DNA of 64,000 nt. Source: an uncultured bacterium (lineage in GTDB: Bacteria; Omnitrophota; Omnitrophia; Omnitrophales; Aquincolibacteriaceae). Below, one piece after another: positions 32,011 to 60,798 of the stretch. The stretch is from the NCBI GenBank assembly GCA_964385615.1, contig CAYLPP010000002.1, positions 192,944-256,943 of the forward strand, in the 5' to 3' direction. Made by a program: the position numbers and the translations under genes. How positions within the stretch are numbered: position 1 is the stretch's first letter; the number at the start of each line of letters is the position of its first letter. The notes under the pieces are model-generated. The model saw only the letters and a program-made list of their open reading frames with translations, was not told the DNA's origin and did no database searches.

Positions 32011-33065
32011 TTAAAAAACTCTTTTATCTCTTTTTCTTTTTTTGCTCGATTTTCATTCTGGCCGAATCCGGCCTCAGGCTCCTGCTGTCTTTTAACACGC
32101 CTTCTCTGGCGGGTCTTCGCAATCCTTACAACTTTACTGAACGCAACGCGCAAGATGATTTCTGGAAGCTTTACGCTCTCTGGAACGGATCTTTGACCCG
32201 CACTCCGCAAAGGGTGCATCCGGTTCTGGGCTGGTCTCAGGATCTGATTACGAAAGAAAACCCGCTGGGCTTCGAGCAGAGAACCCTGGACCTGATTCCT
32301 AAAAACGGGAAACAGGATTTTTTGTTCTACGGAGACTCTTTCGTGAAAGGTCTCGCGAGTGAAGAGTATTTCATGGCCCGCTACATGAACCGCTTGATGC
32401 CCGAAGTGGACGTGGTGGATTTAAGCGTTGGCGGGTATGGCTCTGACCAGATGCTTCTTCTTTTTCAGAGAACCTGGATGTCTTTTGAGAAACCCGTTGT
32501 CATTGTGGGGATGCTTTTGGAAGACGTAGACCGCGCGGTTCTTCAGATTTTTTCCAACCCCAAACCGCGTTTCGAAATTTCTTCCGAAGGAACGCTTGAT
32601 TTGAAAGGGGTTCCGGTGCCGTCCGATCCGGCCGTTTTTTTTAAAACGCATCCGCCGGAAATTAAAAGTTATCTGGCCGGGTATTTTTTAATGAAATTCA
32701 GAAAAGTTCCACAGAAAAGGGATTTGAAGAAGCGGATCAATTCCAAGATTATGGAAGAGTTCAAACGGGTTTGCGGCCAAGAAGGAATGCCTCTGATCTA
32801 TGTTCTTTTCTACGGTCAGGAACAGCTTCGGACGCTGGACTGGCGTGAGACTTTCCTGAAAAACGAACTCGAGAAGAACGGAATTCCTTATTTTGACAGC
32901 AAACCGGCTTTGATCGCATACGCTCAAAGTCACGGTCTGGATTACAGCGAGTTTTACACGAAAAAGCCCGGAGACGGCCATATGGTCGACCTGGGAAATA
33001 AAGTGATCAGTGAAGCTTTGGTGGATTACCTGACGGCGAAGGGGTATTATCATTCTCAGAATTAG
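32007..33065 (+). CDS. Membrane-anchored SGNH-like protein, paralog of the gene at 27877
   Basis: The N-terminal TM and LAESGLRLL motif parallel LAEAGARLV in the paralog. GDS block is FLFYGDSFVKG. Confidence 0.55.
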   Translation: MIKKLFYLFFFFCSIFILAESGLRLLLSFNTPSLAGLRNPYNFTERNAQDDFWKLYALWNGSLTRTPQRVHPVLGWSQDLITKENPLGFEQRTLDLIPKNGKQDFLFYGDSFVKGLASEEYFMARYMNRLMPEVDVVDLSVGGYGSDQMLLLFQRTWMSFEKPVVIVGMLLEDVDRAVLQIFSNPKPRFEISSEGTLDLKGVPVPSDPAVFFKTHPPEIKSYLAGYFLMKFRKVPQKRDLKKRINSKIMEEFKRVCGQEGMPLIYVLFYGQEQLRTLDWRETFLKNELEKNGIPYFDSKPALIAYAQSHGLDYSEFYTKKPGDGHMVDLGNKVISEALVDYLTAKGYYHSQN

Positions 33066-33086
33066 CGGGGAAACACGGAGGCGAAA

Positions 33087-33707
33087 ATGAGCCGGTTAGC
33101 TGTTTTCGTATCGGGAAGCGGTACGAATATGGAAAATCTGATTAAGGTTTCGCAGGCGGGAAAACTCGCGGGCGGGGAAGTTGTTTTAGTGATCAGTGAC
33201 AAGCCCGAAGTTCCGGCCATCGAAAAAGCTCAAAAAGCCGGCGTGACGGTTTCCGTGATTGACCGCAAAAGATACAAAACCCGCGAAGAGTTTGAAGAAG
33301 TCATTATTGATGAACTGACCACCGAAAGAATCGACTGGCTGGTGCTGGCCGGTTTCATGAAGCTTTTGAGCACTGAGTTCGTGCGCCGTTACGCGGGCAA
33401 AATTATCAATATTCACCCCTCCCTGCTTCCCGCTTTTCCGGGGGCTCACGGCATTAAAGACGCCTACGAAGCCAAAGCGCCGGAAACCGGCGTCACCGTT
33501 CACTTTGTGGACGAAGGGGTGGATACGGGCCCCATCATTCTACAGAAGAAGATTCAGGTTAAACCAGGGGAGTCCCTCGAGAGCCTGGAGGGCCGGATTC
33601 ATGCCCTGGAATACGAGATTTACCCTGAGGCCCTGCGCCTGGTCCTGACCGGGAAGGTCCGCCTGCCCAGCCACCACCGGGAAGACGAATTCTGGACAAA
33701 AGACTAA
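33087..33707 (+). CDS. purN: Phosphoribosylglycinamide formyltransferase
   Basis: AVFVSGSGTNMENL...; INIHPSLLPAF; HFVDEGVDTGPII. Confidence 0.85.
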   Translation: MSRLAVFVSGSGTNMENLIKVSQAGKLAGGEVVLVISDKPEVPAIEKAQKAGVTVSVIDRKRYKTREEFEEVIIDELTTERIDWLVLAGFMKLLSTEFVRRYAGKIINIHPSLLPAFPGAHGIKDAYEAKAPETGVTVHFVDEGVDTGPIILQKKIQVKPGESLESLEGRIHALEYEIYPEALRLVLTGKVRLPSHHREDEFWTKD

Positions 33708-33750
33708 GCTTTCCCTATAATTTCCAAACTTCGCCATGATACTTATTTAA

Positions 33751-35139
<1,389 letters not shown>

Positions 35140-36850: not shown

Positions 36851-39800
36851 ATGAATTCCCCAAAGCGAGCAGGAGCCAGCAAGGTTTGTTCGTTGATCAT
36901 TGCGGTTTTTTTTCTGTTCCAGCAATCCGGCTGGCCTGCTTCCGAAATGGCCCGGCTAAATGAATATGAACAGGCGGTCAAACCGGCCGGAGCGATCGCT
37001 CCAGAAGCTGCCGCCGTCCCAGTCCAGGCGGACATTACGGCCCTGGATTTTCTGCAGCAAGAAAATCCTCTTGCGCCGTCTGTGGAACCGGAGCTCTTAA
37101 CCGAAGAGGAAATAGCCAAACCGCAAACTCAGTCTAATGAATACGACCGCTACAGCGTTGATGAAGCGCTCGACCTCTTGCGGCCGGAGTATGCGGCTGC
37201 CGTGATTGTCAAAAGTGTCAGCGCCGATGATCTTCGCCGCTTGCGGGAACTTTCATTTGAAACTGCCATCGTGGTTTTAAGCGGAGAAATCGTGCTTTTT
37301 AGCACTGGGAATGAATCCGAAATTGGTGCTTCCGCGCAAACTCAAGAACTTTTGAAAAAAGCAACTTTTGTTTCTCACATGCATCCGGCGGAAGCGAATG
37401 AAGACGGCCCCTCAGCTTTTGATCTCAGTCACGCGGCCGATGCGCCAGATGTGGAGTATGTTGTGACCGCTTTGGGAGCGTATGCGTACAACAAGCAGGG
37501 CTTGCAAAACGGAGGTCAGGCCTTCAGCCTCGAAGATATGGCGCGCAAGATTCAGACGGCTCAGGATTCAGCGCGGCAAAGCGAAGGAAACGGGCAGGTT
37601 GCGGCGCGCGCGGACTTGAACGGTTTTATTCGGGAAATGGATTTATACAATCAGTTGCAGCTTGACGATCGGGAAACCTTCCGCCGGGGCGATCCGGTGC
37701 CGGTCAGCACGATTCAGGGCTTGATGGATATGCAAAATGATCTAACAGGCGATTATTACCTAGTTAACGATATCGATCTGTCCGGAGTTAATTGGCAGCC
37801 CATTGGCGCGGGCAATAATCCGTTCCGCGGATCATTTAACGGCAACGGATTTACGATCCGTAATTTGACGATTGACCGCCCGAATCAGGACTACATTGGA
37901 CTTTTCGGATCGTTGGAATCCGCGGGTACGATTGAAAACGTGAAACTGGAAAATGTTTCCATCACCGGGCGCAACAATGTTGGCAGTCTTTCCGGTTATA
38001 TCTTTTTGACTTCTGTTAGTGGAAGCTCGACCGAAGGCGGAAGCGTGACCGGTACAGACCGTGTCGGCGGCCTGATCGGAGAAAGTTACAACGGCCTGGG
38101 CATCAATAATTCCCACACGAGTGTTGCGGTCCAGGGGCATGATCAGACCGGCGGTATCGTTGGAAAACTTTGGGACGGAGTTCTCAACAATATCAACCAG
38201 GGTTATTCCCTGGGGACGGTGAACGGGCATAATCAGGTCGGCGGGCTGGCCGGATATTCCAAGAGCGGAGACTTGGTGCGCAGCTATGCTTCTGGAAATA
38301 TTACCGGTCAGGACAGTGTCGGCGGGCTGGTGGGCTCTACGACAGAGAACGCGGGAATCAAAAACAGCTATTACTCGGGCGGAACGGTCAGCGGTACGAC
38401 GAATAATGTCGGCGGCATTGCCGGATATTACAATTCGTATGATGACGGGATCTACAATACGTATTTTGCGGGCATAGTGACGAGCACAGCATCAGCCGGC
38501 GGATTTTTAGGCACGTACAATGCCGGGGTAATTTCAAGCAATTACTGGGATGAGACGCTGAATCCCGGACTGCAGGATTCGGTGAACCGTGGTGACATGG
38601 CCAATATCACAGCTGAAACCACAGCGGCCATGAAAACTCAGAGCACTTATGAAGGCTGGGATTTCAAGGAAATCTGGGTTCTCGACGGGTATCCGAAACT
38701 GCGGCAGGCGATTGCCATCAGCACGCTCGAAGAACTGCAGGCGATGAGCGGAAATTTGACCGCGAGATATTATCTGGTCAATGACATCGATGCTTCCGGT
38801 GTTAATTGGCAACCGGTCGGCACAGGCAATGATCCGTACCGCGGCGTGTTTAACCCCAATGCGTTCCGCGGATCATTTAACGGCAACGGATTTACGATCC
38901 GTAATTTGACGATTGACCGCCCGAATCAGGACTACATTGGACTTTTCGGATCGTTGGAATCCGCGGGTACGATTGAAAACGTGAAACTGGAAAATGTTTC
39001 CATCACCGGGCGCAACAATGTTGGCAGTCTTTCCGGTTATATCTTTTTGACTTCTGTTAGTGGAAGCTCGACCGAAGGCGGAAGCGTGACCGGTACAGAC
39101 CGTGTCGGCGGCCTGATCGGAGAAAGTTACAACGGCCTGGGCATCAATAATTCCCACACGAGTGTTGCGGTCCAGGGGCATGATCAGACCGGCGGTATCG
39201 TTGGAAAACTTTGGGACGGAGTTCTCAACAATATCAACCAGGGTTATTCCCTGGGGACGGTGAACGGGCATAATCAGGTCGGCGGGCTGGCCGGATATTC
39301 CAAGAGCGGAGACTTGGTGCGCAGCTATGCTTCTGGAAATATTACCGGTCAGGACAGTGTCGGCGGGCTGGTGGGCTCTACGACAGAGAACGCGGGAATC
39401 AAAAACAGCTATTACTCGGGCGGAACGGTCAGCGGTACGACGAATAATGTCGGCGGCATTGCCGGATATTACAATTCGTATGATGACGGGATCTACAATA
39501 CGTATTTTGCGGGCATAGTGACGAGCACAGCATCAGCCGGCGGATTTTTAGGCACGTACAATGCCGGGGTAATTTCAAGCAATTACTGGGATGAGACGCT
39601 GAATCCCGGACTGCAGGATTCGGTGAACCGTGGTGACATGGCCAATATCACAGCTGAAACCACAGCGGCCATGAAAACTCAGAGCACTTATGAAGGCTGG
39701 GATTTTTCTTCAATTTGGGTGATGGACGGCTATCCGCGTTTTCGGCCGGAGTCAGTCGAAGGCGGAGACGGTTCGGTCAGCGTCCGCGCCGATAATGGAT

Positions 39801-42800
39801 TTGTGACCTCGCCGTATGCCTCGGTGACTTTTGAGGCACCGGAAGGAACCACGGAAATGCGCTACGGCTATGTCAATGGAAACGGTCCGGTCCAACTGGG
39901 AGGTTGGGGCAGTTATCAGCCTTCAGCCTCGGTTTCAATAAACACGGCCAATGTTGGCGGGCAGGACGGACTAAAAACTTTTTATGCGCAGTACCGCAAT
40001 GCCGCGGGTGTCGAAACCGCGATTGTGAGCTACTCGTTCACGGCCGACACGCTTCCGCCTTCGGGCACGGTCCAGATTGCAAAAGGAAGTTCCGACACCG
40101 GATCTCACGATGTGAACATTGCTTTGGCCGTAGATGACGCGGTTTCAGGTATTCAGGACATGAGAATTTCCGTGGACGGCGGCGCTTTGTGGACGGCTTG
40201 GGGAACGGTGCAGAGTCCGGTGCAAGTCCATCTGCCGCGCGGAGGAGGAGAAAAAGAGGTCCGGGTGGAAGTCCGCGATGCGGCTGGTAATAAAGCCGTG
40301 ATCAGCGACACCATCGTTATTGAAGAGGATCTTCTCTCAGACATTGTGGCTGATGCGGATTCCGCGCAAAGCAATCCTCTCGAGGGCGATATTTCTGGCC
40401 TTCGGACTGGGGACCGCTACACGATCAGCGGGATCGATGCGATTGAACACGAGACCGTTTTTACGTTCGACCAGGGGCTGGATATGCGCGGGGACTCTTT
40501 GGCCTTTCGCTTTAATGTGCTGGAAGGCAGCGGCGAAGCGAAGTTGGAGTTAAAGGAAAAACTCGCGAACGGGTCTTACGTGACCCGCGAAATTTTTTCG
40601 CCGGTTCCATTCCATAACGCGGGCAGCGGCGAGCGCGAGATTATTTTTCCTCTGGCTTACGCGCAAGAACTCTCCAAAATCAACGCGGTGGTGCTCACGG
40701 TGCAGGGCGAGGGCGGGCCTTTCCAACTGGAGATTTCCGATTTTGATTTGCGTGCTTCCGGTTATGAGCCGCCCGCGGTTTCGAACGGCGACGTTCTGAC
40801 CAACAGTATTGCGCTCTACACCTTCCTTAATGTCAACGGCCAGTCCAGCCACACCGGCGAATTTTTTCCGGAAAACTGGGGCCTGACGGAAACAGGAGCC
40901 TACCGGTTTTCCGGCGTTCAGCAGGGCGGAACCGAGACATCGTTTTTCCAATACCCGGCCCGCGTGCTTGATGCGGCGGGAAAAATCCTGCGTATCGTCT
41001 ACGAATCCTCGACCGGCGCTCCCGGCGCGAAGATTACGCTGCGCAATGCTCAGGGCTCGCAGGTTTACGAGCTGCCGCTGACAGCGGAGTTTGAAGCCAC
41101 CGCTTCCGGCGAACGCAAAATCCTGGAATTCCAGATCCCCGATGAGGCGGAGTGGCAGGAAATCGACCAGATTATTCTGGCCACTTACGGCCAGGGTGCG
41201 ATCGACCTTACGCTCGACGAGGTGCGGGTAACCGGCGCTTCGCAGCCTGTGCTGACCGATCCCTTGAGCCTCATCGCTCAGCAGGACCCGGGAAAAATCT
41301 TTCTTTCCCCGGAATTGTTCGCGGGCCTTGATCCGGACAAGACGATTGCCGATGTACTGCGCGACGCGCAAAACCGGATCGTGCGTATTGAAACACAGGA
41401 AGATGTTTTCGCTTACTTTTACGATGCGCAGGGCCGGCTGGTGCAAACGGTCCAGGCCGCCAAGGAAAACGGCGAGATCATTCCCGAAAATCAATACGAC
41501 TACGGGTATGAGCCGGTCAACGGAGGCCCGGAATCGCGCCTGCAGGATATCCGCGAATATCATTTCATCACGGAGCGGAACAATGCGGCAAGGGGAGTCA
41601 CACCCGCCGCTTCGTCCTCGCTGAAGCCGGACCCGAATGCCGCCCAGCCGCCTTTCCCGCCGGCCAATGCGACCGACGGCAGCGGCGGAGACTCGTCGCG
41701 GCCCTGGATTGCGGCTTTGAACGATCCGAATCCTTCCCTGACGCTGGACTTGGGGCAGTGGCGGATGCTTGACGAGGTCCGGGTCGACGCGCGGTTTTTC
41801 AGCCCCGTCGCGTCTGTTATTTACCCGACGCATTTTGTCCTGTCCGGTTCGCTCGACGGCTCGACCTGGTTCGACCTGGCGACGTATGATTCGCCGGAAT
41901 TCCAGGAAGGCACGAACAAGGTTTACAAATTCGAAATCGGTCCGGTTCAGGCGCGCTTTGTCCGCATCCGCGATATCCAGGCCGTGATTCCGTACTGGGT
42001 TCCGGATTTGCAAAACTATCCGGAATTCGCCGGCTTTCCCGTGCTGGACATTAAGGCCTATGTTTCGGAGCTCGAAGTTTTCGAAGCCTTGCGCACGCCC
42101 GTGCTGACCCATGTTTACCGGCCCGAGTACGGCTGCCTTTACGGCTGCGACACGGCGGCGGGCAATCCGGTTGCAAAAATCAGCAAGAACCGCGTGACGG
42201 AGACCGGCGAAATTTCCGCGCCCGAAGTCACTCTGGTTTCGAGCCGGTTCACGCAAGACGAAACCGTCTTCCTTGATTTCCTTGTAGACGGCGAAAACGT
42301 GCGCCGCCAAGTTCCCGGCCCGCTTCAGGAAGGAAACAACCTGTCTGTTTTTAGTTTCGAAAATGAAGACGGTTCGCAAACGCTGGTGCCGGTTAATGTA
42401 GTCCTGGACCGCGTGAAACCTTCCGCAACGCTTGCCGGCGTTTCAACGGGAAATCCCGCGCTCGGCCAGACGTACCGCGACAGCCGTTTCAATCTTACCG
42501 GTATTACGGACGCTGCTTCCGGCCTTGCCGAAATACGCTATCGTGTTGACGGCGGAGCGTGGACGCTTGTGCCCTTACCGGCCGGCGCTGATCTCGCGCT
42601 CGACATCCGGTTCCCCGAAGGCTGGGGCGATCGCGATGTTGAAATCGAAATCGAAGACCGCGCGGGGAATATCCGCACGCTTTCGCAAACCGTAACCATT
42701 GAAGTCAGCGCCTACCTTGCCGACGTAGACTTCAAATATTTTACGGACCCGTACAATGCGGCCCACGGGGCTTTTGAATCCACCCACAGCTATCCCAACG

Positions 42801-44941
42801 AAGGGTACAGCCAAAGGCTCTACACGCAGCCGACCGACTTTGGTTTTACGGCCCAGCTCCTTTCCAATCTTATTGCGGGCCGGATTGTGGTGGATTACAT
42901 GACACGCGACCAGGCCATCGCGATTTTCAAAAACATGATTACGCATCTTCTTGATGATCAGACAAACTCCAAGATTGGCGTGATGGGCCTTTTGCCCTGG
43001 ATGAATTTTGATTCGTCCACCCAGGACTGGCGGCGCGACCTGGATTACGGGAAGGGGATCGCCACGAAAAACGGGCGGCGATTTATGGCGGGCGATAATC
43101 TGAACATGGCTATGGCCTTTGCGGCGTCGCTAGGCGCGTTGAGCCAGACCGAAGACAACGGGGCTGGAGACATTGCCGTGATTAAATCCAAGCTGCAAGC
43201 ATTCCTCAACAATCAGGCGGCCGGTTATGCATGCCTCGCCAGCAACGTTGGCGGTGACAATCCGGATGGCGCGATACGGCGCGGGATTATTATTTCTGAA
43301 AACGCCGGGTCAGATTACGCTGTCTCCAGCTGCAATGATGTCCGCAATGGCGGCACCACGGTGGCGTTCGTGAATGAAGCGGACACGCTGAACCCCGACC
43401 GCAGTATCAATGTTGCATTCGAAAGATCGTTTGGTTCCGAATTCCGGGCCGGCATTTTGTTTGCCGTCCTGAATTACAATCTTCCGAATTCGGTTTACAA
43501 AAACCTCAAGGTCGAAATCGAGAACTACTCCAAAGGTAATGGCTGGACGTATGTTGTCGCTACGGGACAAGGAAGCGCTTTCCAGATGCTTTGGCCGACT
43601 CTGGGCACGCCTGAGACCTTGAATCGCGCGCAGTTGAGAATGCAGGAAAACTTTGTGGATGCGGCGCTTGATTATGCGGGCAAGACTTTACAGCCCGGTT
43701 TTCTTTCCGCGGCCTACGGGTCCTCCGGAGGGTACATTCCGGGAATCGGAATTCCCGATATCGCCATTTATCCGGCCGGGCTGAACGCGGTTTCCACTTC
43801 GCTGTACACGCTTGGAGCGGCATTCGGCGTTGACCCGGACCGCATCACGCCTTTTCTCGAAACCATGCTGCAGCGGTTCCCGGGGCTTGTGACAAGTCAC
43901 GGCCTTTGGGAAGGCGTGGACATGCAGACTTCTTCCGGCGCGGTGATTCAGCAGCAGATCAATCCGAATGTGGCCAGTTTCATTCTGGGCATTCTGGGCA
44001 GTGGAGCCCAGGACTTGCTGGAATATCTGACGCCTGCGCAGGAAACCCGGCTTAACACGATTCTGTGGCAGCCCGCGGGAGCGGATTATGATGTGGTCGC
44101 ATCAAGCCCAGATGCGTTTTCCTGGCAGATGGCGGGCCAGCCGGCCTTCACGTCCAGCCGGAATGGTGATGCTTACCATATTCAGGCCGGAAGCCTTGTC
44201 GGGATTGGAACCGCATTTAAGCAGGGCAGTTCTGGTTCGATCAACACTTCCGGCAAGCGGCTGTTGATTAACTACCGGGCGAGCACGAATGCGGCGTCGG
44301 CCACGGCCGCGAACCTGAAAATTGAATTTAAGGATGTCAACGGGCTTGTGATCCGTCAGCAGGTGAATTTGGTCGACTTGCGCAACACGGGGCAGAATGT
44401 CGTCAATCAGGTGGTTATCGACCTGCCGGAATTTATTGGCACGGCTCAGATTAATGAAATTGTGTTTGTCCTGACCGGGTCCGGCAAAAGCCTTGATGTG
44501 ACTTTTGAGGACGTGGACCTGATCGATCTGGATTCCACTCAGCCTTTGGTGCCCGGCGGCGGAGGCGGAGGCGGCGCTCGGCCCGGGCCTTCGGATCCCA
44601 ATAAAGCAAAGTCCCAGGAATACACACTACAGTCTTACGAGTTGTTTATCGGCAAGGCCCGTGTGGATGCCGAAGCGGGAGCGGCCAAAATTCAACAAAG
44701 GCTGGACGAACTTAAGAACATCAAAAACAAGAGTAAGGAAGAAAAAGCCGAAGAGAAACAGCTCAAAGCCCAGCTCCAGGACTACAAAGCTATTCTCGAC
44801 GATATTGTAAAGTTTGAAAATCAACTGGAAGGAGACTGGAAAATCCTGGCCCATAAAGGTACTCTGAGTGATTCATTGCTGGATGATCTCCTCATTCGAT
44901 ATGGCGGGATCTATGCCTTTCTATACCCAAAGGAACATTAA
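36851..44941 (+). CDS. Giant secreted multidomain protein (2696 aa): signal peptide; two large GLUG-motif repeat modules; Ig-like region; discoidin-like (F5/8 type C) domain; putative six-hairpin glycosidase-like region; Gly-run plus coiled-coil C-terminus
   Basis: AAGGAG RBS 7 nt before the ATG. N-terminal hydrophobic signal peptide. Repeated VGGLxGy / VGGIAGY blocks as recalled for the GLUG motif. LDLGQWRMLDEVRVDARFF...YKFEIGPVQARFVRIR is discoidin-like. VMGLLPWMNFDSS...NLNMAMAFAASLGAL resembles an (alpha/alpha)6 glycoside-hydrolase-like domain (inference). The tail runs GGGGGGARPGPSDP then a heptad-rich segment. Confidence 0.85.
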   Translation: MNSPKRAGASKVCSLIIAVFFLFQQSGWPASEMARLNEYEQAVKPAGAIAPEAAAVPVQADITALDFLQQENPLAPSVEPELLTEEEIAKPQTQSNEYDRYSVDEALDLLRPEYAAAVIVKSVSADDLRRLRELSFETAIVVLSGEIVLFSTGNESEIGASAQTQELLKKATFVSHMHPAEANEDGPSAFDLSHAADAPDVEYVVTALGAYAYNKQGLQNGGQAFSLEDMARKIQTAQDSARQSEGNGQVAARADLNGFIREMDLYNQLQLDDRETFRRGDPVPVSTIQGLMDMQNDLTGDYYLVNDIDLSGVNWQPIGAGNNPFRGSFNGNGFTIRNLTIDRPNQDYIGLFGSLESAGTIENVKLENVSITGRNNVGSLSGYIFLTSVSGSSTEGGSVTGTDRVGGLIGESYNGLGINNSHTSVAVQGHDQTGGIVGKLWDGVLNNINQGYSLGTVNGHNQVGGLAGYSKSGDLVRSYASGNITGQDSVGGLVGSTTENAGIKNSYYSGGTVSGTTNNVGGIAGYYNSYDDGIYNTYFAGIVTSTASAGGFLGTYNAGVISSNYWDETLNPGLQDSVNRGDMANITAETTAAMKTQSTYEGWDFKEIWVLDGYPKLRQAIAISTLEELQAMSGNLTARYYLVNDIDASGVNWQPVGTGNDPYRGVFNPNAFRGSFNGNGFTIRNLTIDRPNQDYIGLFGSLESAGTIENVKLENVSITGRNNVGSLSGYIFLTSVSGSSTEGGSVTGTDRVGGLIGESYNGLGINNSHTSVAVQGHDQTGGIVGKLWDGVLNNINQGYSLGTVNGHNQVGGLAGYSKSGDLVRSYASGNITGQDSVGGLVGSTTENAGIKNSYYSGGTVSGTTNNVGGIAGYYNSYDDGIYNTYFAGIVTSTASAGGFLGTYNAGVISSNYWDETLNPGLQDSVNRGDMANITAETTAAMKTQSTYEGWDFSSIWVMDGYPRFRPESVEGGDGSVSVRADNGFVTSPYASVTFEAPEGTTEMRYGYVNGNGPVQLGGWGSYQPSASVSINTANVGGQDGLKTFYAQYRNAAGVETAIVSYSFTADTLPPSGTVQIAKGSSDTGSHDVNIALAVDDAVSGIQDMRISVDGGALWTAWGTVQSPVQVHLPRGGGEKEVRVEVRDAAGNKAVISDTIVIEEDLLSDIVADADSAQSNPLEGDISGLRTGDRYTISGIDAIEHETVFTFDQGLDMRGDSLAFRFNVLEGSGEAKLELKEKLANGSYVTREIFSPVPFHNAGSGEREIIFPLAYAQELSKINAVVLTVQGEGGPFQLEISDFDLRASGYEPPAVSNGDVLTNSIALYTFLNVNGQSSHTGEFFPENWGLTETGAYRFSGVQQGGTETSFFQYPARVLDAAGKILRIVYESSTGAPGAKITLRNAQGSQVYELPLTAEFEATASGERKILEFQIPDEAEWQEIDQIILATYGQGAIDLTLDEVRVTGASQPVLTDPLSLIAQQDPGKIFLSPELFAGLDPDKTIADVLRDAQNRIVRIETQEDVFAYFYDAQGRLVQTVQAAKENGEIIPENQYDYGYEPVNGGPESRLQDIREYHFITERNNAARGVTPAASSSLKPDPNAAQPPFPPANATDGSGGDSSRPWIAALNDPNPSLTLDLGQWRMLDEVRVDARFFSPVASVIYPTHFVLSGSLDGSTWFDLATYDSPEFQEGTNKVYKFEIGPVQARFVRIRDIQAVIPYWVPDLQNYPEFAGFPVLDIKAYVSELEVFEALRTPVLTHVYRPEYGCLYGCDTAAGNPVAKISKNRVTETGEISAPEVTLVSSRFTQDETVFLDFLVDGENVRRQVPGPLQEGNNLSVFSFENEDGSQTLVPVNVVLDRVKPSATLAGVSTGNPALGQTYRDSRFNLTGITDAASGLAEIRYRVDGGAWTLVPLPAGADLALDIRFPEGWGDRDVEIEIEDRAGNIRTLSQTVTIEVSAYLADVDFKYFTDPYNAAHGAFESTHSYPNEGYSQRLYTQPTDFGFTAQLLSNLIAGRIVVDYMTRDQAIAIFKNMITHLLDDQTNSKIGVMGLLPWMNFDSSTQDWRRDLDYGKGIATKNGRRFMAGDNLNMAMAFAASLGALSQTEDNGAGDIAVIKSKLQAFLNNQAAGYACLASNVGGDNPDGAIRRGIIISENAGSDYAVSSCNDVRNGGTTVAFVNEADTLNPDRSINVAFERSFGSEFRAGILFAVLNYNLPNSVYKNLKVEIENYSKGNGWTYVVATGQGSAFQMLWPTLGTPETLNRAQLRMQENFVDAALDYAGKTLQPGFLSAAYGSSGGYIPGIGIPDIAIYPAGLNAVSTSLYTLGAAFGVDPDRITPFLETMLQRFPGLVTSHGLWEGVDMQTSSGAVIQQQINPNVASFILGILGSGAQDLLEYLTPAQETRLNTILWQPAGADYDVVASSPDAFSWQMAGQPAFTSSRNGDAYHIQAGSLVGIGTAFKQGSSGSINTSGKRLLINYRASTNAASATAANLKIEFKDVNGLVIRQQVNLVDLRNTGQNVVNQVVIDLPEFIGTAQINEIVFVLTGSGKSLDVTFEDVDLIDLDSTQPLVPGGGGGGGARPGPSDPNKAKSQEYTLQSYELFIGKARVDAEAGAAKIQQRLDELKNIKNKSKEEKAEEKQLKAQLQDYKAILDDIVKFENQLEGDWKILAHKGTLSDSLLDDLLIRYGGIYAFLYPKEH
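37821..39705 (+). repeat. Intragenic tandem duplication, period 1041 bp, with an 844-bp core that is 100% identical (37821-38664 and 38862-39705)
   Basis: Seen directly in the sequence. The ORF track independently shows identical ORFs at 37832..38230 versus 38873..39271 and at 38286..38477 versus 39327..39518. The flanks of each unit (YYLVNDID.SGVNWQP... and YEGWDF..IWV.DGYP) are similar but diverged. Confidence 0.95.
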
Positions 44942-45115: not shown

Positions 45116-45194
<79 letters not shown>

Positions 45195-45204
45195 TACAAC
45201 AAAA

Positions 45205-45236
45205 GGGGTTGCGATAAAAATCGCAGCCCCTTTTTT
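45205..45236 (+). terminator. Rho-independent terminator supplied by island DNA downstream of the reconstituted tRNA
   Basis: GGGGTTGCGA-taaaaa-TCGCAGCCCC followed by TTTTTT. Confidence 0.6.
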
Positions 45237-45252
45237 CTGTCTAAAAACGGTT

Positions 45253-45272
45253 TTGGGAACATTTTGGGAACA
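45253..45272 (+). repeat. Pair of direct TTGGGAACA boxes 11 bp apart (candidate integrase arm-type sites, attL side)
   Basis: TTGGGAACAttTTGGGAACA. The same doublet with the same spacing occurs at 60601..60620 near attR. Confidence 0.45.
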
Positions 45273-45957
45273 AAATGCCCCAAAATTCGTTAACCCCAAT
45301 CCTGCCGCATCTCAAAATATTTTTGCCCTTCCGCACTCCCTTCGCTTTGGTTTTGGGCTTTTAGCCTGTACCAATCGCCTGACCACACCCTCTCATCGTC
45401 GAAATTCGTTCGAGAGGTTGTGGTCAGACGAACGCTCAGGGGTGCGGAAAAACACTCAAAAAATATTTTCCCCTCTAAAAACTTTGACTAGGTTGGAACG
45501 GCCCCCTCCTTTTTGCCCAATACTATGAAGATAAAAATAAAAAAAGCAGCAAGCTGAGTCATAAACCTTGGTTGCTGTAAGGCCATAAAGCCTTAAGCAG
45601 TACCCCGGAGAGTGAGTGTGAGAAATAGGAGTTTTGGAGGCGAACCTGAAAGTGTCTAAAAAATATTTTCAGTATAGAAACTTTGAAAAAGTGTACACGG
45701 CCCCCTTGTTTTTGCCCAATACCATGAAGATTAAATTATTAATCATCCACCCAGCCTTGAAGCTCGGTGTAAAACCAGGCCGTGAAGCCATAAGCAGCAA
45801 AATTGTGTGTGATTGTGATCGTGATTGAGAGTGAGATTTTAAGTATGAACGTGATTCAAAAGGACTGCTGTGTTGAAGGAAAATCTTGGGCGTATACCAG
45901 GATTCTTCGGCGCGTCAATCTTTGAGAATCATCAGTAGTGCGAGTAAGGGAGTGCGT

Positions 45958-46158
45958 TTGGAAAACAGGAAATTACTGACCGTGAAAGAACTTTCGGAAT
46001 TGCTGGGTGTGCCCGTTTCCTGGATTTATCAGAGAACGAGAATGGGGCAAGCCGCGATTCCGCATGTGAAATTTGGAAAGTATGTGCGCTTTGATTCAGA
46101 CGCCGTCATCCGCTTTTTTGCGGAGAAAGACGGCGGGGAGCTGAAGCAGGCGGCATAA
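45958..46158 (+). CDS. Excisionase/AlpA-like helix-turn-helix protein
   Basis: LLTVKELSELLGVPVSWIYQRTRMGQAAIPHVKFGKYVRFDSDAVIRFF, directly upstream of the integrase. Probable TTG start at 45958 with AAGGGA 6 nt upstream. The ORF track entry starts at 45886. Confidence 0.6.
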   Translation: MENRKLLTVKELSELLGVPVSWIYQRTRMGQAAIPHVKFGKYVRFDSDAVIRFFAEKDGGELKQAA

Positions 46159-46170
46159 AAGAGAGAGTGA

Positions 46171-47331
46171 GTGTGTGAGATGAGAGGAAGCATCATCAAG
46201 CGGTACCGCAAGGTGAACGGCCGCCGCGAAGCGGTTTTTCACATTCGGTACAGAATCGGAGCAAGGCAGTATTCGTTAAGTGTCGGGACGAACAAGAAAG
46301 AAGCCGAACGGATTTTGTCGGAGCGTATTGCGCAGATCCACTATGGCACTTTTTCGCAGCCGAGCCGGGTTCTTTTTTCAGAATTCGGAAAGAAATGGCT
46401 GGAAGATTATGCCATTACAGCGGTGAAGCCTTCGACTTACCGGGCTTATGAAAGCGTGATTACCAAGAGCGTGAATCCGTGCCTTGGTCATTACGCGATT
46501 TCGAAAATCACCCCGGCAATGATTCAGAGTTATTTTGCCGGAGTAGTCCGCGAGCGGCACAGCACCAAAACCGCGAACAATCACCTGGTGCTTTTGAAGA
46601 CCATGTTCAAGCACGCGCGGAAGTGGGGCTATATTCGTGTGAGCCCTGCGGATGATATTGACCGCGCGCGCATCGAAGAAAAAGAAATGGATTATCTGCA
46701 GCCGGAAGAGATCCGTCTGCTGTTGAACAATTCCGACGAACCTTACCGGACTTTGTTCATGACGGCCGCCTTGACCGGAATGCGGCGCGGAGAAATTCTG
46801 GGTTTGCAATGGGGCGATATTGATTGGCAATCCAATCAAATTCGCGTGAGGCGGAGTCTGTTTTGGCAAACCCATGCGGAAAATAAAATCCGCAGGCAGG
46901 ACAAACGCTCGATGTTCACTTCGCCGAAATCAAAGCGCTCGGTCCGTGCGATTGTCATGTCTCCTGCGCTCCGTGAAGCACTTGAAATTCACCGGATTAA
47001 ATCGCCGGTCAGCCCGTTCGATCTCGTTTTCTGCAACACGAACGGAAATCCGATTGATCCGGATAATATGATTCACCGCGAATTTCATCCGGCACTTGTC
47101 CGCGCGGGCCTTCGTAAAATCCGCTTCCACGATTTGCGGCACACCTACACAACTTTGCTGATCGCCCAGGACGCCAACGCCAAATTCATTCAAGCCCAGC
47201 TCGGCCACGCCTCCATCCAAACCACCTTTGATCGCTACGGCCATCTCCTGCCAATCAAAGGCGACGAAGTCGGCCTGCGCCTGGATGCCACTGTTTTTGG
47301 AGGAGCAAAGGAGGTGGTTCAGCAAACCTGA
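46171..47331 (+). CDS. Tyrosine-type site-specific integrase
   Basis: 386 aa with an N-terminal arm-binding-like domain (SAM-like core). C-terminal catalytic motifs R...HDLRHTY...Y (FDRYGHLLP). Confidence 0.9.
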   Translation: MCEMRGSIIKRYRKVNGRREAVFHIRYRIGARQYSLSVGTNKKEAERILSERIAQIHYGTFSQPSRVLFSEFGKKWLEDYAITAVKPSTYRAYESVITKSVNPCLGHYAISKITPAMIQSYFAGVVRERHSTKTANNHLVLLKTMFKHARKWGYIRVSPADDIDRARIEEKEMDYLQPEEIRLLLNNSDEPYRTLFMTAALTGMRRGEILGLQWGDIDWQSNQIRVRRSLFWQTHAENKIRRQDKRSMFTSPKSKRSVRAIVMSPALREALEIHRIKSPVSPFDLVFCNTNGNPIDPDNMIHREFHPALVRAGLRKIRFHDLRHTYTTLLIAQDANAKFIQAQLGHASIQTTFDRYGHLLPIKGDEVGLRLDATVFGGAKEVVQQT

Positions 47332-47552
47332 TAATGACGGGCTAAACGTGATAACAAACACGATAGTAGCTATGTGGCCAAATAAGTGGCCAAAATCTGA
47401 CCCAGTGAGTTTGTAACTATAATCAATCATTAGAGGTGCGATTAAAAAGAAGTGGCCAAAAAAGCGGACATGGCTGCTTTCTTATGTAATCTCATACAAT
47501 CTTATATAGTTAGGTATATAAGATTCATAACCTGTTTATTTTAAATAGGTTA

Positions 47553-47623
47553 TGCATGAAAACTATATTTCATGTAACGAATTTGACATAGGAAGTCAAT
47601 TTTACGACATGAAATATAGTTTT
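47553..47623. promoter_or_regulatory. Nested palindrome upstream of hsdR: perfect 17-bp inverted repeat (47559-47575 and 47607-47623) flanking a 31-bp spacer with an inner TTGAC/GTCAA inverted repeat
   Basis: AAAACTATATTTCATGT ... ACATGAAATATAGTTTT. Three GTGGCCAAA direct repeats lie just upstream (47374, 47386, 47452). More short palindromes occur at 47497-47524. Confidence 0.45.
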
Positions 47624-47705
47624 TGCGGGGCCATTATAAATACCTTGATCTTTGAGAGCCGTCCGCTAGAATTACCTATATGATTACCCATTTAAAGGTG
47701 CGCCA

Positions 47706-50489
47706 GTGAACGAAGCTGAAACACGCAAAGAAATCATCGATCGGGAATTGTCTAAGCGCGGCTGGGATTTAAAAAATCCAAGCCAAGTCATTGTCGAATT
47801 TGAAATGGAAAGTCGATTTCCAGAAGAGAATAAAATTAAGGTACAAGCGGAAGAATATGGAACCAGTTTTTCTGGAAAAGAATTTGCGGACTATTTGCTG
47901 CTTTCCCGCGATGGTGCGACACCCTTTGCGGTAGTTGAAGCAAAACGAACCTCAAAGAATCCGCGCTTGGGTCAGCAACAGGCAGTTGGTTATGCTGAAA
48001 ATATCAAATCTAAATTCGGGGTAGATCCTTTTATCTTTTTGACCAACGGGGAATCCACTCTTTTTTGGGATCGCAGTCGTTATGCACCCCGAAAGGTTTA
48101 CGGCTTTTTCGACATTAAAGACTTAGAACGCCTGAAATATTTACGCGAACAGCAAGTTGATCCTACAATTCTTGAAATTCGCAAAGATATAGCCAGCCGC
48201 GTTTATCAGCATGAAGCCATACGCCGCACGATAGAGACATTCTCAAAAGGCCATCGCAAGGCATTAATTGTTATGGCAACGGGAACAGGAAAAACCCGCA
48301 CCGCGATGGCCTTGATTGATTTGCTCATTCGCGCTAAATGGGTTAATCATGTTTTGTTTTTAGCGGATCGCAAGATGTTGCGCGACCAAGCTTATGGAAA
48401 AAAGGGCTTTCAAGGATTCTTTACGGAGTCCATGACGAAAATCAAAAGCGGTTCGTTTGATAAGAATCAGCGCCTTTACGCCTCAACGATTCAAACACTT
48501 GAAGAAGTTTATCGGGAAATCTCGCCCGGGTTTTTCGATTTAATCATCATTGATGAATGCCATAGATCTATTTACAACAAGTGGCAGGATATCCTTTCCT
48601 ATTTTGATGCTCTTCAGGTTGGATTAACCGCAACACCGGCAGAATTTGTTGACCGGGATACTTTTCGTTTTTTCCAATGCGACGAAGGTCATCCGACTTT
48701 TAACTACACCTACGAGTCGGCCATTGAAGAAGAAATTCTAGTGCCCTTCATCCCTTATCATGCAAAGACTAACTTTCAAATTAAAGGATTGAAATCAGGG
48801 CAGATTCCAGAAGAGATCAGAAAGAAACTAGTCGAGGAAGGCAAAACAGAGGAAGAGCTAGACTTTGAAGGTACAGATTTTGAGAAGAAGTTTACGAACA
48901 AAGAAAGTTTGGAGTCCATGGTTAAGGAATTCATGGAGGTTTGTAATAAAGACGAAACCGGCTCTCTTCCAGGTAAGACCATTTATTTTGCTATTTCCAA
49001 AGAGCATGCTTACCGATTGCTCGATACTTTTGAACGACTTTACCCAGAATATAAAGGACGGCTCGCAGAAGTTATTGTTTCAGACGACAGCCGTGCGGAT
49101 GGATTCTTAACCCGATTCGAAAACGATTCTTTTCCTCGCATCGCTATCTCCGTTGATATGCTTGATACAGGGGTGGACATTCGCGAGGTGGTGAATCTGG
49201 TTTTCGCCAAGCCCGTATTTAGCAAAATCAAATTTTGGCAAATGATAGGCCGTGGAACGCGCACGATTGATTCAGAAAATGCCAAGCCTTGGTGCGCGTT
49301 TAAAGATTCATTCCTGATAATTGACCACTGGAGCAATTTTGAATATTTCAATTTAAAGCCTGAAGGCGAAATTCAAGCTCCGCAGGATTCTTTGCCTACC
49401 CGGCTCTTTCGCCTCCGTTTGCAGAAGCTGAAGCTCCAGCTGGCTTCTCAAAACCAAGAAGCTTGTGAGGCTATTAAACAAGACCTGTTAACAAGCATTC
49501 GTGCCTTGCCTCAAGATAGCGTGACCATCCTCGAAAAGAAGGAGTCTTTGACCAGAGTTTTAAGCGAGGCTTTTTGGAAGCACATTGATATTGGTTATTT
49601 AGAAAAGGAAATTGCGCCTCTCTTACGCTTTACCCAGGATGTGAATTTGAATATCTATGCATTTCTTATAAAGTGCGAGCGTTTAGAGATCGCGGCGATC
49701 AGCAAAGAAGAAAAAGCAATCAAGGAAATTGGAGAATCTATTCGTGAAGACCTGCGTTTGCTGCCGCTAAATCTCAGACAAATTCAGCAAAAAGAAGAAC
49801 AGGTTTTACGGGCTTCATCAGATCGTTTTTGGAGTTCTTTCCAGATGAATGAAGTGGGTTTTCTCAAAACAGAGATTGCGCCTTTGATGAAATGGCGCCG
49901 TGAGAGAACGCATACAGTAATTGAGTTTGATCTTAAGGATGAAATTTTAGAGCGTAAATGGATTGAGTTTGGCCCTTCCGGAGAAGGCGATTATGTTCAT
50001 CAATACAAAGAGAAAGTAGAGAAAGAAATCCGAACTTTGGCAGATCAAGATTCTGCCTTGAAAAAAATCAAAGAGGGCCACCCTGTTAGCGAAGAAGAGC
50101 TCGACCGGCTGGAAGACAAATTGAATCAGCCAGATTTATATATCAACGAGCGTAATTTGCGTGAAACCTATGGGCAGCCCACGGGAACCTTCAAACAATT
50201 CCTTCTCAAAATATTTGACAAATATGACTTCCCAAGTCGTGAGCAGCTTATTCAAAGGTCCTTTGAGACTTTTGTTCATGAGAAGCCCTGGTTTTCTGCG
50301 GATCAAATTCATTTTCTGCGTATCGTAAAAAATGTTTTCATTGAAAAATGCAAGCGTCGGGAAAAGCTTTCCGTGCATGATTTTTACGAAGGGCCTTTTG
50401 AGGCTCTCGGGCAAGACGCCGCAGATAAGCTTTTTAAGAAAAACGAGCTTGAAGAAATCGTTGAGTTTTTTAACAGTCAGGCGGCCTAG
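47706..50489 (+). CDS. hsdR: Type I restriction enzyme R subunit
   Basis: GTG start. MNEAETRKEIIDRELSKRGW is the HsdR N-terminus. Walker A ATGTGKT, DECH box, helicase C-terminal motifs; 927 aa. Confidence 0.9.
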   Translation: MNEAETRKEIIDRELSKRGWDLKNPSQVIVEFEMESRFPEENKIKVQAEEYGTSFSGKEFADYLLLSRDGATPFAVVEAKRTSKNPRLGQQQAVGYAENIKSKFGVDPFIFLTNGESTLFWDRSRYAPRKVYGFFDIKDLERLKYLREQQVDPTILEIRKDIASRVYQHEAIRRTIETFSKGHRKALIVMATGTGKTRTAMALIDLLIRAKWVNHVLFLADRKMLRDQAYGKKGFQGFFTESMTKIKSGSFDKNQRLYASTIQTLEEVYREISPGFFDLIIIDECHRSIYNKWQDILSYFDALQVGLTATPAEFVDRDTFRFFQCDEGHPTFNYTYESAIEEEILVPFIPYHAKTNFQIKGLKSGQIPEEIRKKLVEEGKTEEELDFEGTDFEKKFTNKESLESMVKEFMEVCNKDETGSLPGKTIYFAISKEHAYRLLDTFERLYPEYKGRLAEVIVSDDSRADGFLTRFENDSFPRIAISVDMLDTGVDIREVVNLVFAKPVFSKIKFWQMIGRGTRTIDSENAKPWCAFKDSFLIIDHWSNFEYFNLKPEGEIQAPQDSLPTRLFRLRLQKLKLQLASQNQEACEAIKQDLLTSIRALPQDSVTILEKKESLTRVLSEAFWKHIDIGYLEKEIAPLLRFTQDVNLNIYAFLIKCERLEIAAISKEEKAIKEIGESIREDLRLLPLNLRQIQQKEEQVLRASSDRFWSSFQMNEVGFLKTEIAPLMKWRRERTHTVIEFDLKDEILERKWIEFGPSGEGDYVHQYKEKVEKEIRTLADQDSALKKIKEGHPVSEEELDRLEDKLNQPDLYINERNLRETYGQPTGTFKQFLLKIFDKYDFPSREQLIQRSFETFVHEKPWFSADQIHFLRIVKNVFIEKCKRREKLSVHDFYEGPFEALGQDAADKLFKKNELEEIVEFFNSQAA

Positions 50490-50491
50490 CG

Positions 50492-51535
50492 ATGAAGTCA
50501 TTTAGCGAAGAATATTTTAAAAACTTATTTACGCCTCCTGAGATGCTCCCGACTTTTACTGCTTTGGGAGAATACAAGGGGAAGGAATTGCTTTTCCAAA
50601 GGCAATCCCGCGATGTTCTTGAAAAAATGGTCATGGTTGCCAAAATTGAAAGTGCGGAATCTTCCAACCGTATTGAAGGTGTCATTGTTCCTCATAAGCG
50701 TGTCGAGGCTCTTTTTAATAAAAGCATGCCTAAAAATCGCTCAGAGCAAGAAGTGGCCGGGTATCGTGACGCTCTTCAAAAAATACATGAAATGCATGAC
50801 GGTATGCCTATTTCCAATAATGTGGTACTGATGCTGCATTCCAGTCTTTATAAATATGTTACGGGTGTTAAATCCGGGGAATGGAAGCGAAGCGACAATG
50901 AAATTATTGAACATCTTCCGGATGGGAATACGAAGCTGCGCTTTAAACCTGTTTCTGCGTTTCAAACAGCGCATTACATGGAAGAGCTAGTGCGTCAGTT
51001 TAATCATGCGATGCAAAAACGGCGAATGGACCCACTCGTATTAATCCCTCTTTTTGTTTTGGATTTTCTCTGCATCCATCCATTTCTTGATGGTAATGGT
51101 CGTGTAAGTCGTCTTTTGACTTTGCTGTTGCTTTATCACGCGGGTTTCGGAGTTGGGAAATATGTCAGCTTGGAACGCTTAGTCGAAGAAAGTAAAGAAA
51201 CCTATTACGAAGCGCTTTACGATTCTTCGCAAGGTTGGCATGAAGGAAAACATAATGCGCTTCCATGGGTGCGCTATTTTTCTGGTGTGCTAACAGCAGC
51301 TTATAAAGAGTTTGAATCTCGGGTTGGTATTTTTAAAGAGTCAGGGACTAAAAGCGAGCGTTTAATCGAAATTATCAATCGTTTCGAAAATCCGTTTTCT
51401 GCCTCTGATCTTCAAAAGGCCTGCCCAGATGCGGGTATTGACCTTATCCGCAAAATCCTTAAAGACCTCCGCCGTTCTGGGGATATAGAGCCCCTGGGAC
51501 GAGGGCGCTACGCCCAATGGCGGCGAATTAGGTAA
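50492..51535 (+). CDS. Fic-family protein (canonical HPFLDGNGRVSR motif, N-terminal SxxxEG inhibitory-helix motif, C-terminal winged-helix-like tail) embedded between hsdR and hsdM
   Basis: Fic motif HPFLDGNGRVSRLL; SNRIEG lies upstream. The start is 2 nt after the hsdR stop. Confidence 0.85.
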   Translation: MKSFSEEYFKNLFTPPEMLPTFTALGEYKGKELLFQRQSRDVLEKMVMVAKIESAESSNRIEGVIVPHKRVEALFNKSMPKNRSEQEVAGYRDALQKIHEMHDGMPISNNVVLMLHSSLYKYVTGVKSGEWKRSDNEIIEHLPDGNTKLRFKPVSAFQTAHYMEELVRQFNHAMQKRRMDPLVLIPLFVLDFLCIHPFLDGNGRVSRLLTLLLLYHAGFGVGKYVSLERLVEESKETYYEALYDSSQGWHEGKHNALPWVRYFSGVLTAAYKEFESRVGIFKESGTKSERLIEIINRFENPFSASDLQKACPDAGIDLIRKILKDLRRSGDIEPLGRGRYAQWRRIR

Positions 51536-51605
51536 TAGCCTTATTTAATTAGGTAAAAATACAATAAAATACCTAATTGACAGAGGGGGCTTACCTAATT
51601 AGAAT
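51525..51605 (+). promoter_or_regulatory. Internal promoter for hsdM-hsdS (TTGACA-N17-TAGAAT) overlapped by four 9-bp AATTAGGTA / TACCTAATT boxes
   Basis: Boxes at 51525-51533 and 51547-51555 (AATTAGGTA) and at 51570-51578 and 51592-51600 (TACCTAATT). TTGACA at 51577-51582, TAGAAT at 51600-51605. AAGGAG RBS at 51661. Confidence 0.5.
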
Positions 51606-51670
51606 GCTCCTATTCTCAAGCCTGTATATGCAGGCAATTGAGAAGCGGAATCATTTCTTTAAGGAGCCCT

Positions 51671-53161
51671 ATGTTAAAACCTGAGCTAAAAAGTCAAATC
51701 GATAAACTCTGGAATCGTTTCTTCGCCGGAGGCATCGCGAACCATCTCACCGCAATTGAGCAAATTTCCTACCTTATTTTTATGAAGCGCCTTGAAGATA
51801 TGGATTATCAGCATGCTCGGGCAGCTGAAAGGCGCGGAGAAAAATATGCTTCGATTTTTAAGGGGCAAGAAAATTGCCGTTGGTCGCATTGGATTCAAAT
51901 GCCGGCTGACGAAATGTTGGCCCATGTTCGCGACAAGGTTTTTTTATTCATCAAAAATTTAAAAGGCGAAGAGAGTCTTTTTGGAACAGCGATGAAAGAT
52001 GCTGTTTTTATGATTCCCAAGCCTTCGCTTTTACAAGAAGCCGTTAAAATTATTGATGAACTTAACATCTCGCAGCAAAACCTCGATACCCAGGGCGATA
52101 TTTACGAATACCTTTTAAGCTCTCTTCAAAGCTCTGGACTCACAGGTGCTTTTAGAACGCCGCGCCACATTATTCGCATGATGGTCAAATTGGTTGATCC
52201 TAAGATTGGCGAAAGAGTTTGCGATCCAGCTGCTGGAACAGCAGGTTTTCTTGTAAATGCTTTCTTGCATATTCTTGAACAGAACACATACAAAGATTCT
52301 GTTGAGTATGACGAAGACGGAGTTCCGCATCATCTCGTCGCTGAAAAGCTTGATAAAAAGCAGCGTAACTTCTTAAAAGAAAAAGCCTTTTATGGTTTTG
52401 ATTTTGATACGACCATGGTTCGTATCGGAATTATGAATCTTATCCTGCACGGCGTTGAAAAGCCTCAATTTCAATATACAGATACGCTATCTAAGTCCTT
52501 CGAGCAGCGTGAAAAATACGATGTGATTCTGGCGAACCCACCCTTCAAAGGCTCTATTGATAAAAGCGATATTTCGGATCAATTCAAAGTGAAGTCCACG
52601 AAGACAGAGCTTCTCTTTATGGAATTATTTATACGGCTTCTAGTAACAGGTGGTCGTGCGGCAGTGATTGTTCCAGATGGTGTTCTTTTTAGTTCATCCA
52701 ACGCGCATGCTGGCGTGCGGAAAATGCTCGTGGAAGAAAACCAGCTTGAAGGCATCATCTCGATGCCTTCGGGTATATTCAAGCCCTACGCTGGGGTTTC
52801 AACCGCTATTGTCATTTTTACTAAAGGTGGCGAGACGGACAAAGTTTGGTTTTATGACATGACAGCAGATGGACTATCCTTGGATGATAAACGCCAAAAA
52901 ACCGAAGAAAATGATATCCCAGATATTGTTTCAAAATGGAAAGCGCGGGATATCAAAAAGAAGCCCTCAGCAGGAGAGAAATGGTTTTGGGTAGATGTTA
53001 AAGATATACGCAAGACTAAATATGACCTTTCGATTTCTAATTATAAAGAAATCCAATATGAAGAAGTTCAGCATGAGAATCCCGAGGAAATTTTAAATAA
53101 AATTTTACAGTTAGAACGGGAAATCCAAGAAAATGTTAGCGCTTTAAAAGGCTTCAAATGA
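51671..53161 (+). CDS. hsdM: Type I restriction-modification DNA methyltransferase M subunit
   Basis: ATG at 51671 (MLKPELKSQIDKLWNRFFAGGI) with AAGGAG 5 nt upstream. NPPF motif (LANPPFKGS). SAM-binding DPAAGTAGFL. Confidence 0.9.
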   Translation: MLKPELKSQIDKLWNRFFAGGIANHLTAIEQISYLIFMKRLEDMDYQHARAAERRGEKYASIFKGQENCRWSHWIQMPADEMLAHVRDKVFLFIKNLKGEESLFGTAMKDAVFMIPKPSLLQEAVKIIDELNISQQNLDTQGDIYEYLLSSLQSSGLTGAFRTPRHIIRMMVKLVDPKIGERVCDPAAGTAGFLVNAFLHILEQNTYKDSVEYDEDGVPHHLVAEKLDKKQRNFLKEKAFYGFDFDTTMVRIGIMNLILHGVEKPQFQYTDTLSKSFEQREKYDVILANPPFKGSIDKSDISDQFKVKSTKTELLFMELFIRLLVTGGRAAVIVPDGVLFSSSNAHAGVRKMLVEENQLEGIISMPSGIFKPYAGVSTAIVIFTKGGETDKVWFYDMTADGLSLDDKRQKTEENDIPDIVSKWKARDIKKKPSAGEKWFWVDVKDIRKTKYDLSISNYKEIQYEEVQHENPEEILNKILQLEREIQENVSALKGFK

Positions 53162-55183: not shown

Positions 55184-55187
55184 AAAT

Positions 55188-55934: not shown

Positions 55935-55951
55935 ATGTTTTGAGAGGTTTA

Positions 55952-56764: not shown

Positions 56765-56779
56765 GGCGGAAAATTTACG

Positions 56780-56801
56780 ACGGGCAATAGCCCGTTTTTT
56801 T
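56780..56801 (+). terminator. Rho-independent terminator ending the hsdM-hsdS-three-gene transcription unit
   Basis: ACGGGC-aata-GCCCGT followed by TTTTTTT. Confidence 0.55.
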
Positions 56802-56841
56802 GTCTTTAATTAACAGTAGTGTTTTAGAAAGTGGATTGAAT

Positions 56842-60311: not shown

Positions 60312-60600
60312 TAAATATAGAAGATTTTCCGCACAGTGTGTGGAAAATCATGAGATCAAGTTAAGCCCGGAAGGCTAGGTGGGCTTTACATACTTGGTTG
60401 CATTGCTTTTAATTACCCAGGTTTTAATTTTAGGTGTTACTAAAAAATGATTTTTATAATCAGAGAGATAATCTGATACGATCTTTTGACCTTAAATTTT
60501 GGCGGGTGGTGCGGGCGGCGGCGAAAAATGCAGCCGGGAAACAACGAAAAACATCAGCAGAAAGCAGCAGCAAACTAAAACAAAAATTTGTGCTGAAATT

Positions 60601-60620
60601 TTGGGAACAAATTGGGAACA
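60601..60620 (+). repeat. Second TTGGGAACA-N2-TTGGGAACA doublet (candidate arm-type sites, attR side)
   Basis: TTGGGAACAaaTTGGGAACA has the same box and 11-bp register as 45253..45272, 119 bp inside attR. Confidence 0.45.
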
Positions 60621-60738
60621 AAACAGGCAGAAAAGCCGTCAAAAACGAAAAACCAGCATTAAAAACTTTCACACTTAAATCATGCTCACAGAAATAGTTA
60701 TAAAAAATAATCAAAAATCAGAAAAATCGTTTCGACCC

Positions 60739-60785: not shown

Positions 60786-60798
60786 CGCAAGTGAAGAA

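Follow-up and report, generated by a model that had tools for sequence, protein, structure and literature searches.

The window, the 64,000-nt stretch of DNA analysed here, carries a giant open reading frame (36851..44941, + strand; 2696 aa by ORF list and translation) with two tandem β-helix modules whose cores are identical over 844 nt. This identity is probably the outcome of a recent intragenic gene conversion between two ancestral β-helix modules. In the proposed scenario, the ancestral gene would have contained two tandem IgA1-protease-type modules, each with its own head, core and tail. Very recently, non-reciprocal intragenic recombination would have replaced the 844-nt core in one module by a copy of the core in its neighbour, leaving the head and tail linkers with their older, position-specific sequence. 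Module 1 was probably the donor and module 2 the recipient.

Base-by-base comparison at an offset of 1041 nt revealed a single exact run of 844 nt shared by 37821-38664 and 38862-39705, bearing out the length, position, spacing and complete identity given by the sequence-only reading. Outside this run, ungapped identity drops at once to 16-40% per 50-nt bin. The offset equals 347 codons, and both core copies share the reading frame of the giant gene; at the protein level, residues F325-F605 are the same as F672-F952 (281 aa). Identity thus covers 281 of the 347 residues in each period, or 81% of its 1041 nt. A repeat search detected no second long exact repeat in the 64-kb window. Chance is excluded as the origin of the match, since 844 matches in succession have a probability of p ~1e-96 when the 77% identity of the adjoining paralogous sequence is taken as the reference. 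Across approximately 202 synonymous sites there are 0 differences (dS = 0, with an upper bound of ~0.015 at 95%), and because selection at the protein level cannot hold synonymous sites identical, the identity does not stem from such selection. Two antisense ORFs of 132 aa each (37832-38230 and 38873-39271, minus strand) lie within the core copies. They are indeed duplicated, as had been pointed out in favour of the repeat, but their duplication follows mechanically from that of the core itself and carries no independent information.

Each module is composed of a head (consensus xxSTLxxLxxMxxxLxxxYYLVNDIDxSGVNWQPxGxGNxP), a core extending from FRGSFNGNG to GWDF, and a tail (xxIWVxDGYPxxR), and identity is confined to the cores. 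Head 1 (37697..37820, + strand; aa 283-324 by translation) comprises the N-terminal cap and linker of module 1 and lies outside the identical tract. It is followed by core copy 1 (37821..38664, + strand), which encodes the β-helix body and the C-terminal helix up to the GWDF motif. The 197-nt inter-copy linker (38665..38861, + strand) was resolved by head/head and tail/tail alignments into tail 1 (KEIWVLDGYPKLRQA) and head 2 (IAISTLEEL...NWQPVGTGNDP...), after which come core copy 2 (38862..39705, + strand) and tail 2 (SSIWVMDGYPRFRPE; 39706..39753, + strand), the latter in register with tail 1 and 62% identical to it. The two heads are 77% identical over their proximal 69 nt, where the differences are mostly synonymous, and 46% identical over their distal 48 nt. 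Judged by these alignments, the linker is old paralogous sequence. The divergence at the edges of the repeat, observed earlier from the letters alone, is therefore real, but it represents this older linker and not recently duplicated sequence whose ends have decayed.

A 27-nt indel sits at the left edge of copy 2. Here, the codon view and a MAFFT alignment showed an extra, lineage-specific segment of nine codons, YRGVFNPNA (38837..38863, + strand), which matches the first 27 nt of the core (FRGSFNGNG) at 19/27 positions. Head 1 has a 27-nt gap exactly opposite this segment in the MAFFT alignment, and the modules of the relatives P0002, P0003 and P0004, described below, lack it in the alignment. 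From its sequence, the segment looks like a relic of module 2's own older core start. At its right end, on the conserved GWDF motif, the tract keeps register; at its left end it meets the indel, so that either the junction is out of register or the indel pre-existed.

The giant protein begins with a signal-peptide-like N-terminus (judged by eye) and a conserved N-terminal domain. After these come the two β-helix modules, domains of the Ig-like and F5/8 type C kinds, a large C-terminal region that is uncharacterised, and finally a coiled-coil tail. Pfam analysis identified Peptidase_M26_N (two stretches), F5_F8_type_C, Big_3_2 and RHS. The whole protein scored 43.9 bits against Peptidase_M26_N (PF05342; cut-off 27.7), and one module alone scored 25.9 bits, slightly under the cut-off. 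The Glug motif (PF07581) reached 16.5 bits, below its Pfam cut-off of 20.5, and is present in homologues at ~33% identity. The initial description of a GLUG-repeat gene is thus approximately right, with Peptidase_M26_N as the family that passes its threshold and Glug as the one that does not.

AF2 modelling of module 1, with 22 homologous modules, predicted a β-helix (pLDDT 90.4, pTM 0.90). Residues 1-42 of the model, corresponding to head 1, hold the cap helix; the identical tract spans the full helix body and the C-terminal helix without reaching the N-terminal cap or the last strand. Foldseek searches with the predicted module returned 3n6z (E 4.8e-7, probability 1.0), which is the Bacteroides ovatus ‘putative IgA1 protease’ BACOVA_03286, as well as 6xja, 7uvk and 7jgj (probability 1.0), with modest TM-scores of 0.47-0.52. 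At the sequence level, phmmer matched 6xja (E 0.002). The predicted modules thus match IgA1-protease-type (Peptidase_M26_N/GLUG-like) β-helices and, in both sequence and predicted fold, resemble the N-terminal β-helix of the Gram-positive IgA1 metalloproteases (PDB 6XJA, 7JGJ). Unlike these enzymes, the giant protein has no M26 catalytic domain: Pfam gave no match to Peptidase_M26_C, and no HExxH motif occurs in its 2696 aa. We therefore rejected its assignment as an M26 IgA1-specific metalloprotease (ZmpA/B/C). In the S. pneumoniae enzyme IgA1P, the substrate Fab is bound by the β-helix, which also gates access to the active site (PMC7695701). In the giant protein, the role of the modules is likely that of binding or of a spacer.

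Pfam identified no anchor domain in the giant protein. Its C-terminal motif YGGIYAFLY (44880-44938) is conserved in P0002 and follows a Gly-rich stretch and a coiled-coil-like segment; it might be a sorting or anchoring signal. The N-terminal domain (aa ~95-282; 37133-37696) is conserved within, and specific to, a small orthologous family. It carries an invariant GNESEIG ... SHxH(x9)SxxD pattern that by eye resembles a JAMM/MPN+ metal site. This resemblance found no support in other searches with the domain, as there was no match in Pfam or by sequence in the PDB, and its AF2 model, of moderate quality (pLDDT 68.8), gave no significant fold match.

Full-length relatives date the two-module layout to a time before the identical tract. 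Besides P0001, an identical protein from a 300,917-bp NCBI contig, the protein collection includes P0002 (57% identity, 3062 aa) and P0003 (54% identity, 2641 aa), both of which carry the two modules at the corresponding position. Within each protein the two cores have diverged, being 72% (P0002) and 68% (P0003) identical at the protein level; at the DNA level, the core pairs show 55-87% identity per 60-nt bin, and no exact run exceeds 21 nt (P0002) or 17 nt (P0003). A further relative, P0004 (59% identity over the parts it has in common with the query), has one module followed by the relic of a second head (RLQQSSAISTLKYL; compare RLQQAIAVSTLKEL in P0003). Tail-head linkers orthologous to that of the window are present in P0002 and P0003 and, as a relic, in P0004. 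Candidatus Omnitrophica is the label carried by partial relatives of the giant protein, and the enolase of the genome is 82% identical to that of a MAG labelled Planctomycetia.

Closer relatives did not emerge. Scanning the GTDB representative genomes with the family-specific N-terminal domain gave no match, and a scan of JGI metagenomes yielded one relative only, at 26% identity; no close strain was found in these two sets or in the protein collection. Exact look-ups of the giant protein and of the enolase returned no record of a second strain or an independent assembly. Protein searches aimed at fragments from the junction regions brought up no near-identical piece; they also missed the parent protein, apparently through a limit of the word index. 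As an independent trace of the genome we found only a Logan contig of 2.2 kb (run SRR16481187); it matches 32598-34707 with 100% identity and stops short of the giant gene.

Since P0002 and P0003 have both modules with diverged cores, the two-module layout is ancestral, and the identity of the cores is recent and lineage-specific; the identical tract is younger than the paralogous copies that contain it. This identity includes the synonymous sites and breaks off sharply at the flanks, which are paralogous but diverged (77%, 46% and 62% identical). From the 0 differences at ~202 synonymous sites, the synonymous divergence since the event is less than ~1.5%. A fresh 1041-nt duplication would have made the entire period identical; the diverged linker rules it out. 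Among the options offered by the sequence-only reading, gene conversion thus gains support from the orthologues with diverged cores and from the diverged linker, and a very recent duplication loses ground because the period is not identical throughout.

We infer both the conversion event and its direction. Module 1 is the probable donor because, just ahead of copy 2, module 2 still has the 27-nt remnant of what looks like an older core start; only this remnant points to the direction, which the tree of the cores does not resolve. Relative to the deeper homology, the left junction is shifted by 27 nt, even though a better match in register was available a few codons upstream. A purely homology-guided event does not readily account for this shift unless the indel pre-existed. 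The offset may reflect a pre-existing indel that stopped the heteroduplex, or a junction at the short microhomology AAT-NCG-TT. There are also hints that this conversion may be the last of several rounds. The cores group by genome in a neighbour-joining tree, with weak bootstrap values of 53-57%. A 7-residue insertion is common to the second-module heads of P0002 and P0003 and to the head of P0004; it is missing from head 2 of the window, which resembles head 1. Both modules of P0002 share an insertion of 13-15 aa seen nowhere else. With such short heads and low bootstrap values, the support for these older rounds is weak. Two other candidates were rejected: a mobile element, because the tract is in frame and homologous throughout to the cores of the orthologues, and the template/variable repeat pair of a diversity-generating retroelement, because the tract has zero mismatches and is far too long.

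Exact repeats of this kind recur in the wider family. Among the 120 best homologues, all of them giant proteins with the same module, 31 carry an exact internal repeat that is 50 aa or longer, and in 17 it is 100 aa or longer. The homologue P0013 of Bacillus sp. SCS-151, encoded on a 4.98-Mb contig, has an exact run of 2583 nt at an offset of 2178 nt. The number of modules per protein ranges from 1 to 5 among 56 homologues. In a Cellulosilyticum cluster (P0010/P0135) with a repeat period of 419 aa, members at least 96% identical to one another are separated by clean gaps, either 417-419 aa or 1257 aa long, and thus differ by one or three modules; the underlying sequences are metagenome assemblies, and the differences in copy number could have arisen during assembly. 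Like the window gene, P0013 and the P0010 cluster have homologous modules (37% and 31% identity) arranged in tandem with long exact stretches. There, however, the sequence beyond the exact stretch is nearly identical as well, giving mosaics of young repeats, whereas the window, in contrast to these and most other homologues, has a single sharply bounded tract in modules that are otherwise 46-77% identical. Several of the homologues with exact module repeats (P0032, P0075, P0079, P0096, P0117 and P0119) combine 3-5 β-helix modules with flagellin N- and C-terminal domains (PF00669/PF00700), and one of them, from Candidatus Adamsella, is named ‘flagellin’; these are giant flagellins with highly identical inserted modules.

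A possible, if unlikely, alternative to conversion is an assembly effect, in which two (or more) near-identical cores are real and the perfect identity, the copy number or both were made by the assembler. Bubble popping or polishing could have homogenised differences at a few sites, or a graph loop could have been traversed once where the array is in fact longer. An exact 844-nt repeat with a unique 197-nt spacer forms a simple de Bruijn loop, and the way such assemblers work makes its multiplicity unreadable from the sequence. The source is, moreover, a contig of 300,917 bp from an uncultured organism, the searches described above found no independent assembly of the giant gene, and the length classes in Cellulosilyticum could partly reflect the same problem. 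Nevertheless, all four junctions (head 1-core, core-tail 1, head 2-core and core-tail 2) are in frame and fit the two-module architecture of the orthologues. Cores ~70% identical, as in those orthologues, are not mergeable by an assembler, so the near-identity at least must be real. The 64 kb hold no other exact repeat, and equally exact module repeats occur on the 4.98-Mb Bacillus contig, both of which argue against an artefact. What could be a product of bubble popping, polishing or loop resolution is the perfection of the identity and the count of exactly two copies, and the finding flags a site at which the copy number and sequence of an assembly are not to be trusted without long reads.

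Quite improbable, in our judgement, is a broader version of the conversion scenario in which homogenisation in this orthologous family is recurrent and limited to the β-helix body, the caps and linkers staying position-specific. Selection would then favour identical cores together with distinct linkers, for example as an in-frame 347-aa copy-number switch in an uncultured bacterium with relatives in Planctomycetota or Omnitrophota. The pattern behind this reading is a grouping of cores according to genome and of heads according to position.

A very recent module duplication followed by a trimming rearrangement, for example a 1041-nt tandem duplication to three modules and then an in-register deletion, seems very improbable. 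The out-of-register left junction at AAT-NCG-TT is of the kind made by illegitimate duplication, and module numbers do change in the family, yet this route takes two events against a single one for conversion. One tandem event would not suffice, as it leaves the whole 1041-nt period identical, and the 197-nt linker is present once and diverged. The two-module state and the orthologous tail-head linker are, furthermore, common to P0002 and P0003. Of the ‘tandem duplication’ originally proposed for this locus, the two identical copies stand, and a fresh duplication of the full period does not, the linker at 38665-38861 being non-identical.

Elsewhere in the window, an integrase-borne defence island (45116-60790) lies directly downstream of the giant gene. 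It starts at a tRNA-Met gene (45116-45192), the 3′ 52 nt of which recur at 60739-60790 with 96% identity as putative attL/attR, and GC content falls to 0.35-0.48 between the two. The island encodes a tyrosine integrase (46171-47331), a type I restriction-modification locus (HsdR, 47706-50489; Fic, 50492-51535; HsdM, 51638-53161; HsdS, 53158-54312), a Hypoth_Ymh and a C92-like protein, and a Hachiman-like pair formed by HamA (56800-57756) and a DEAD helicase (57753-60311). Between the tRNA-Met and integrase genes lies a non-coding 84-nt direct repeat (45456-45539 and 45655-45738; 75% identity, 199 nt apart). At the other end of the window, paralogous neighbours of ~545 aa (2438-4075 and 4557-6206, minus strand) show ~73% DNA identity at an offset of 2131-2134 nt. 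This pair goes back to an old tandem duplication and, in contrast to the β-helix cores, shows no homogenisation.

Close counterparts of such repeats are the tandem domain repeats of bacterial surface proteins that undergo concerted evolution and intragenic gene conversion, among them the Periscope Proteins (SasG, Aap, Rib, Sgo_0707, Esp and CdrA), in which high DNA identity between adjacent domains aids intragenic recombination and length variation; they were sought in a screen for long, highly identical tandem repeats (PMC8201768). As in these proteins, adjacent folded domains of the giant protein are (near-)identical in DNA, the period is in frame and the number of modules varies in the family. 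Unlike them, the window gene has two copies and no long array, with 81% of the period identical and the linkers older and position-specific. Its repeat is a ~330-aa β-helix, not a small Ig-like or SHIRT-type stalk domain, and the domain that follows the modules is not a wall anchor. The organism is, in addition, uncultured and environmental, and the gene is known here from one sequence. Homogenised repeat modules are a common and well-known behaviour of giant bacterial surface proteins, and since the literature on such proteins amply describes both identical tandem modules and the gain or loss of modules by recombination, the present case opens no new question. Its distinction would be that, in an uncultured lineage, two old modules of one giant secreted protein share a single conversion tract that is clean and datable.

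RecA-dependent recombination between direct repeats is well established. We infer that the 844-nt direct repeat, with its copies 197 nt apart, is a substrate for unequal recombination of this type, by which exactly 347 aa would be lost or gained in frame. Such unequal exchange would yield variants with one module or with three. Length variation of the giant protein by recombination is therefore plausible, given that the period is in frame, that members of the family have 1 to 5 modules and that clean one-module indels separate members of a related cluster.
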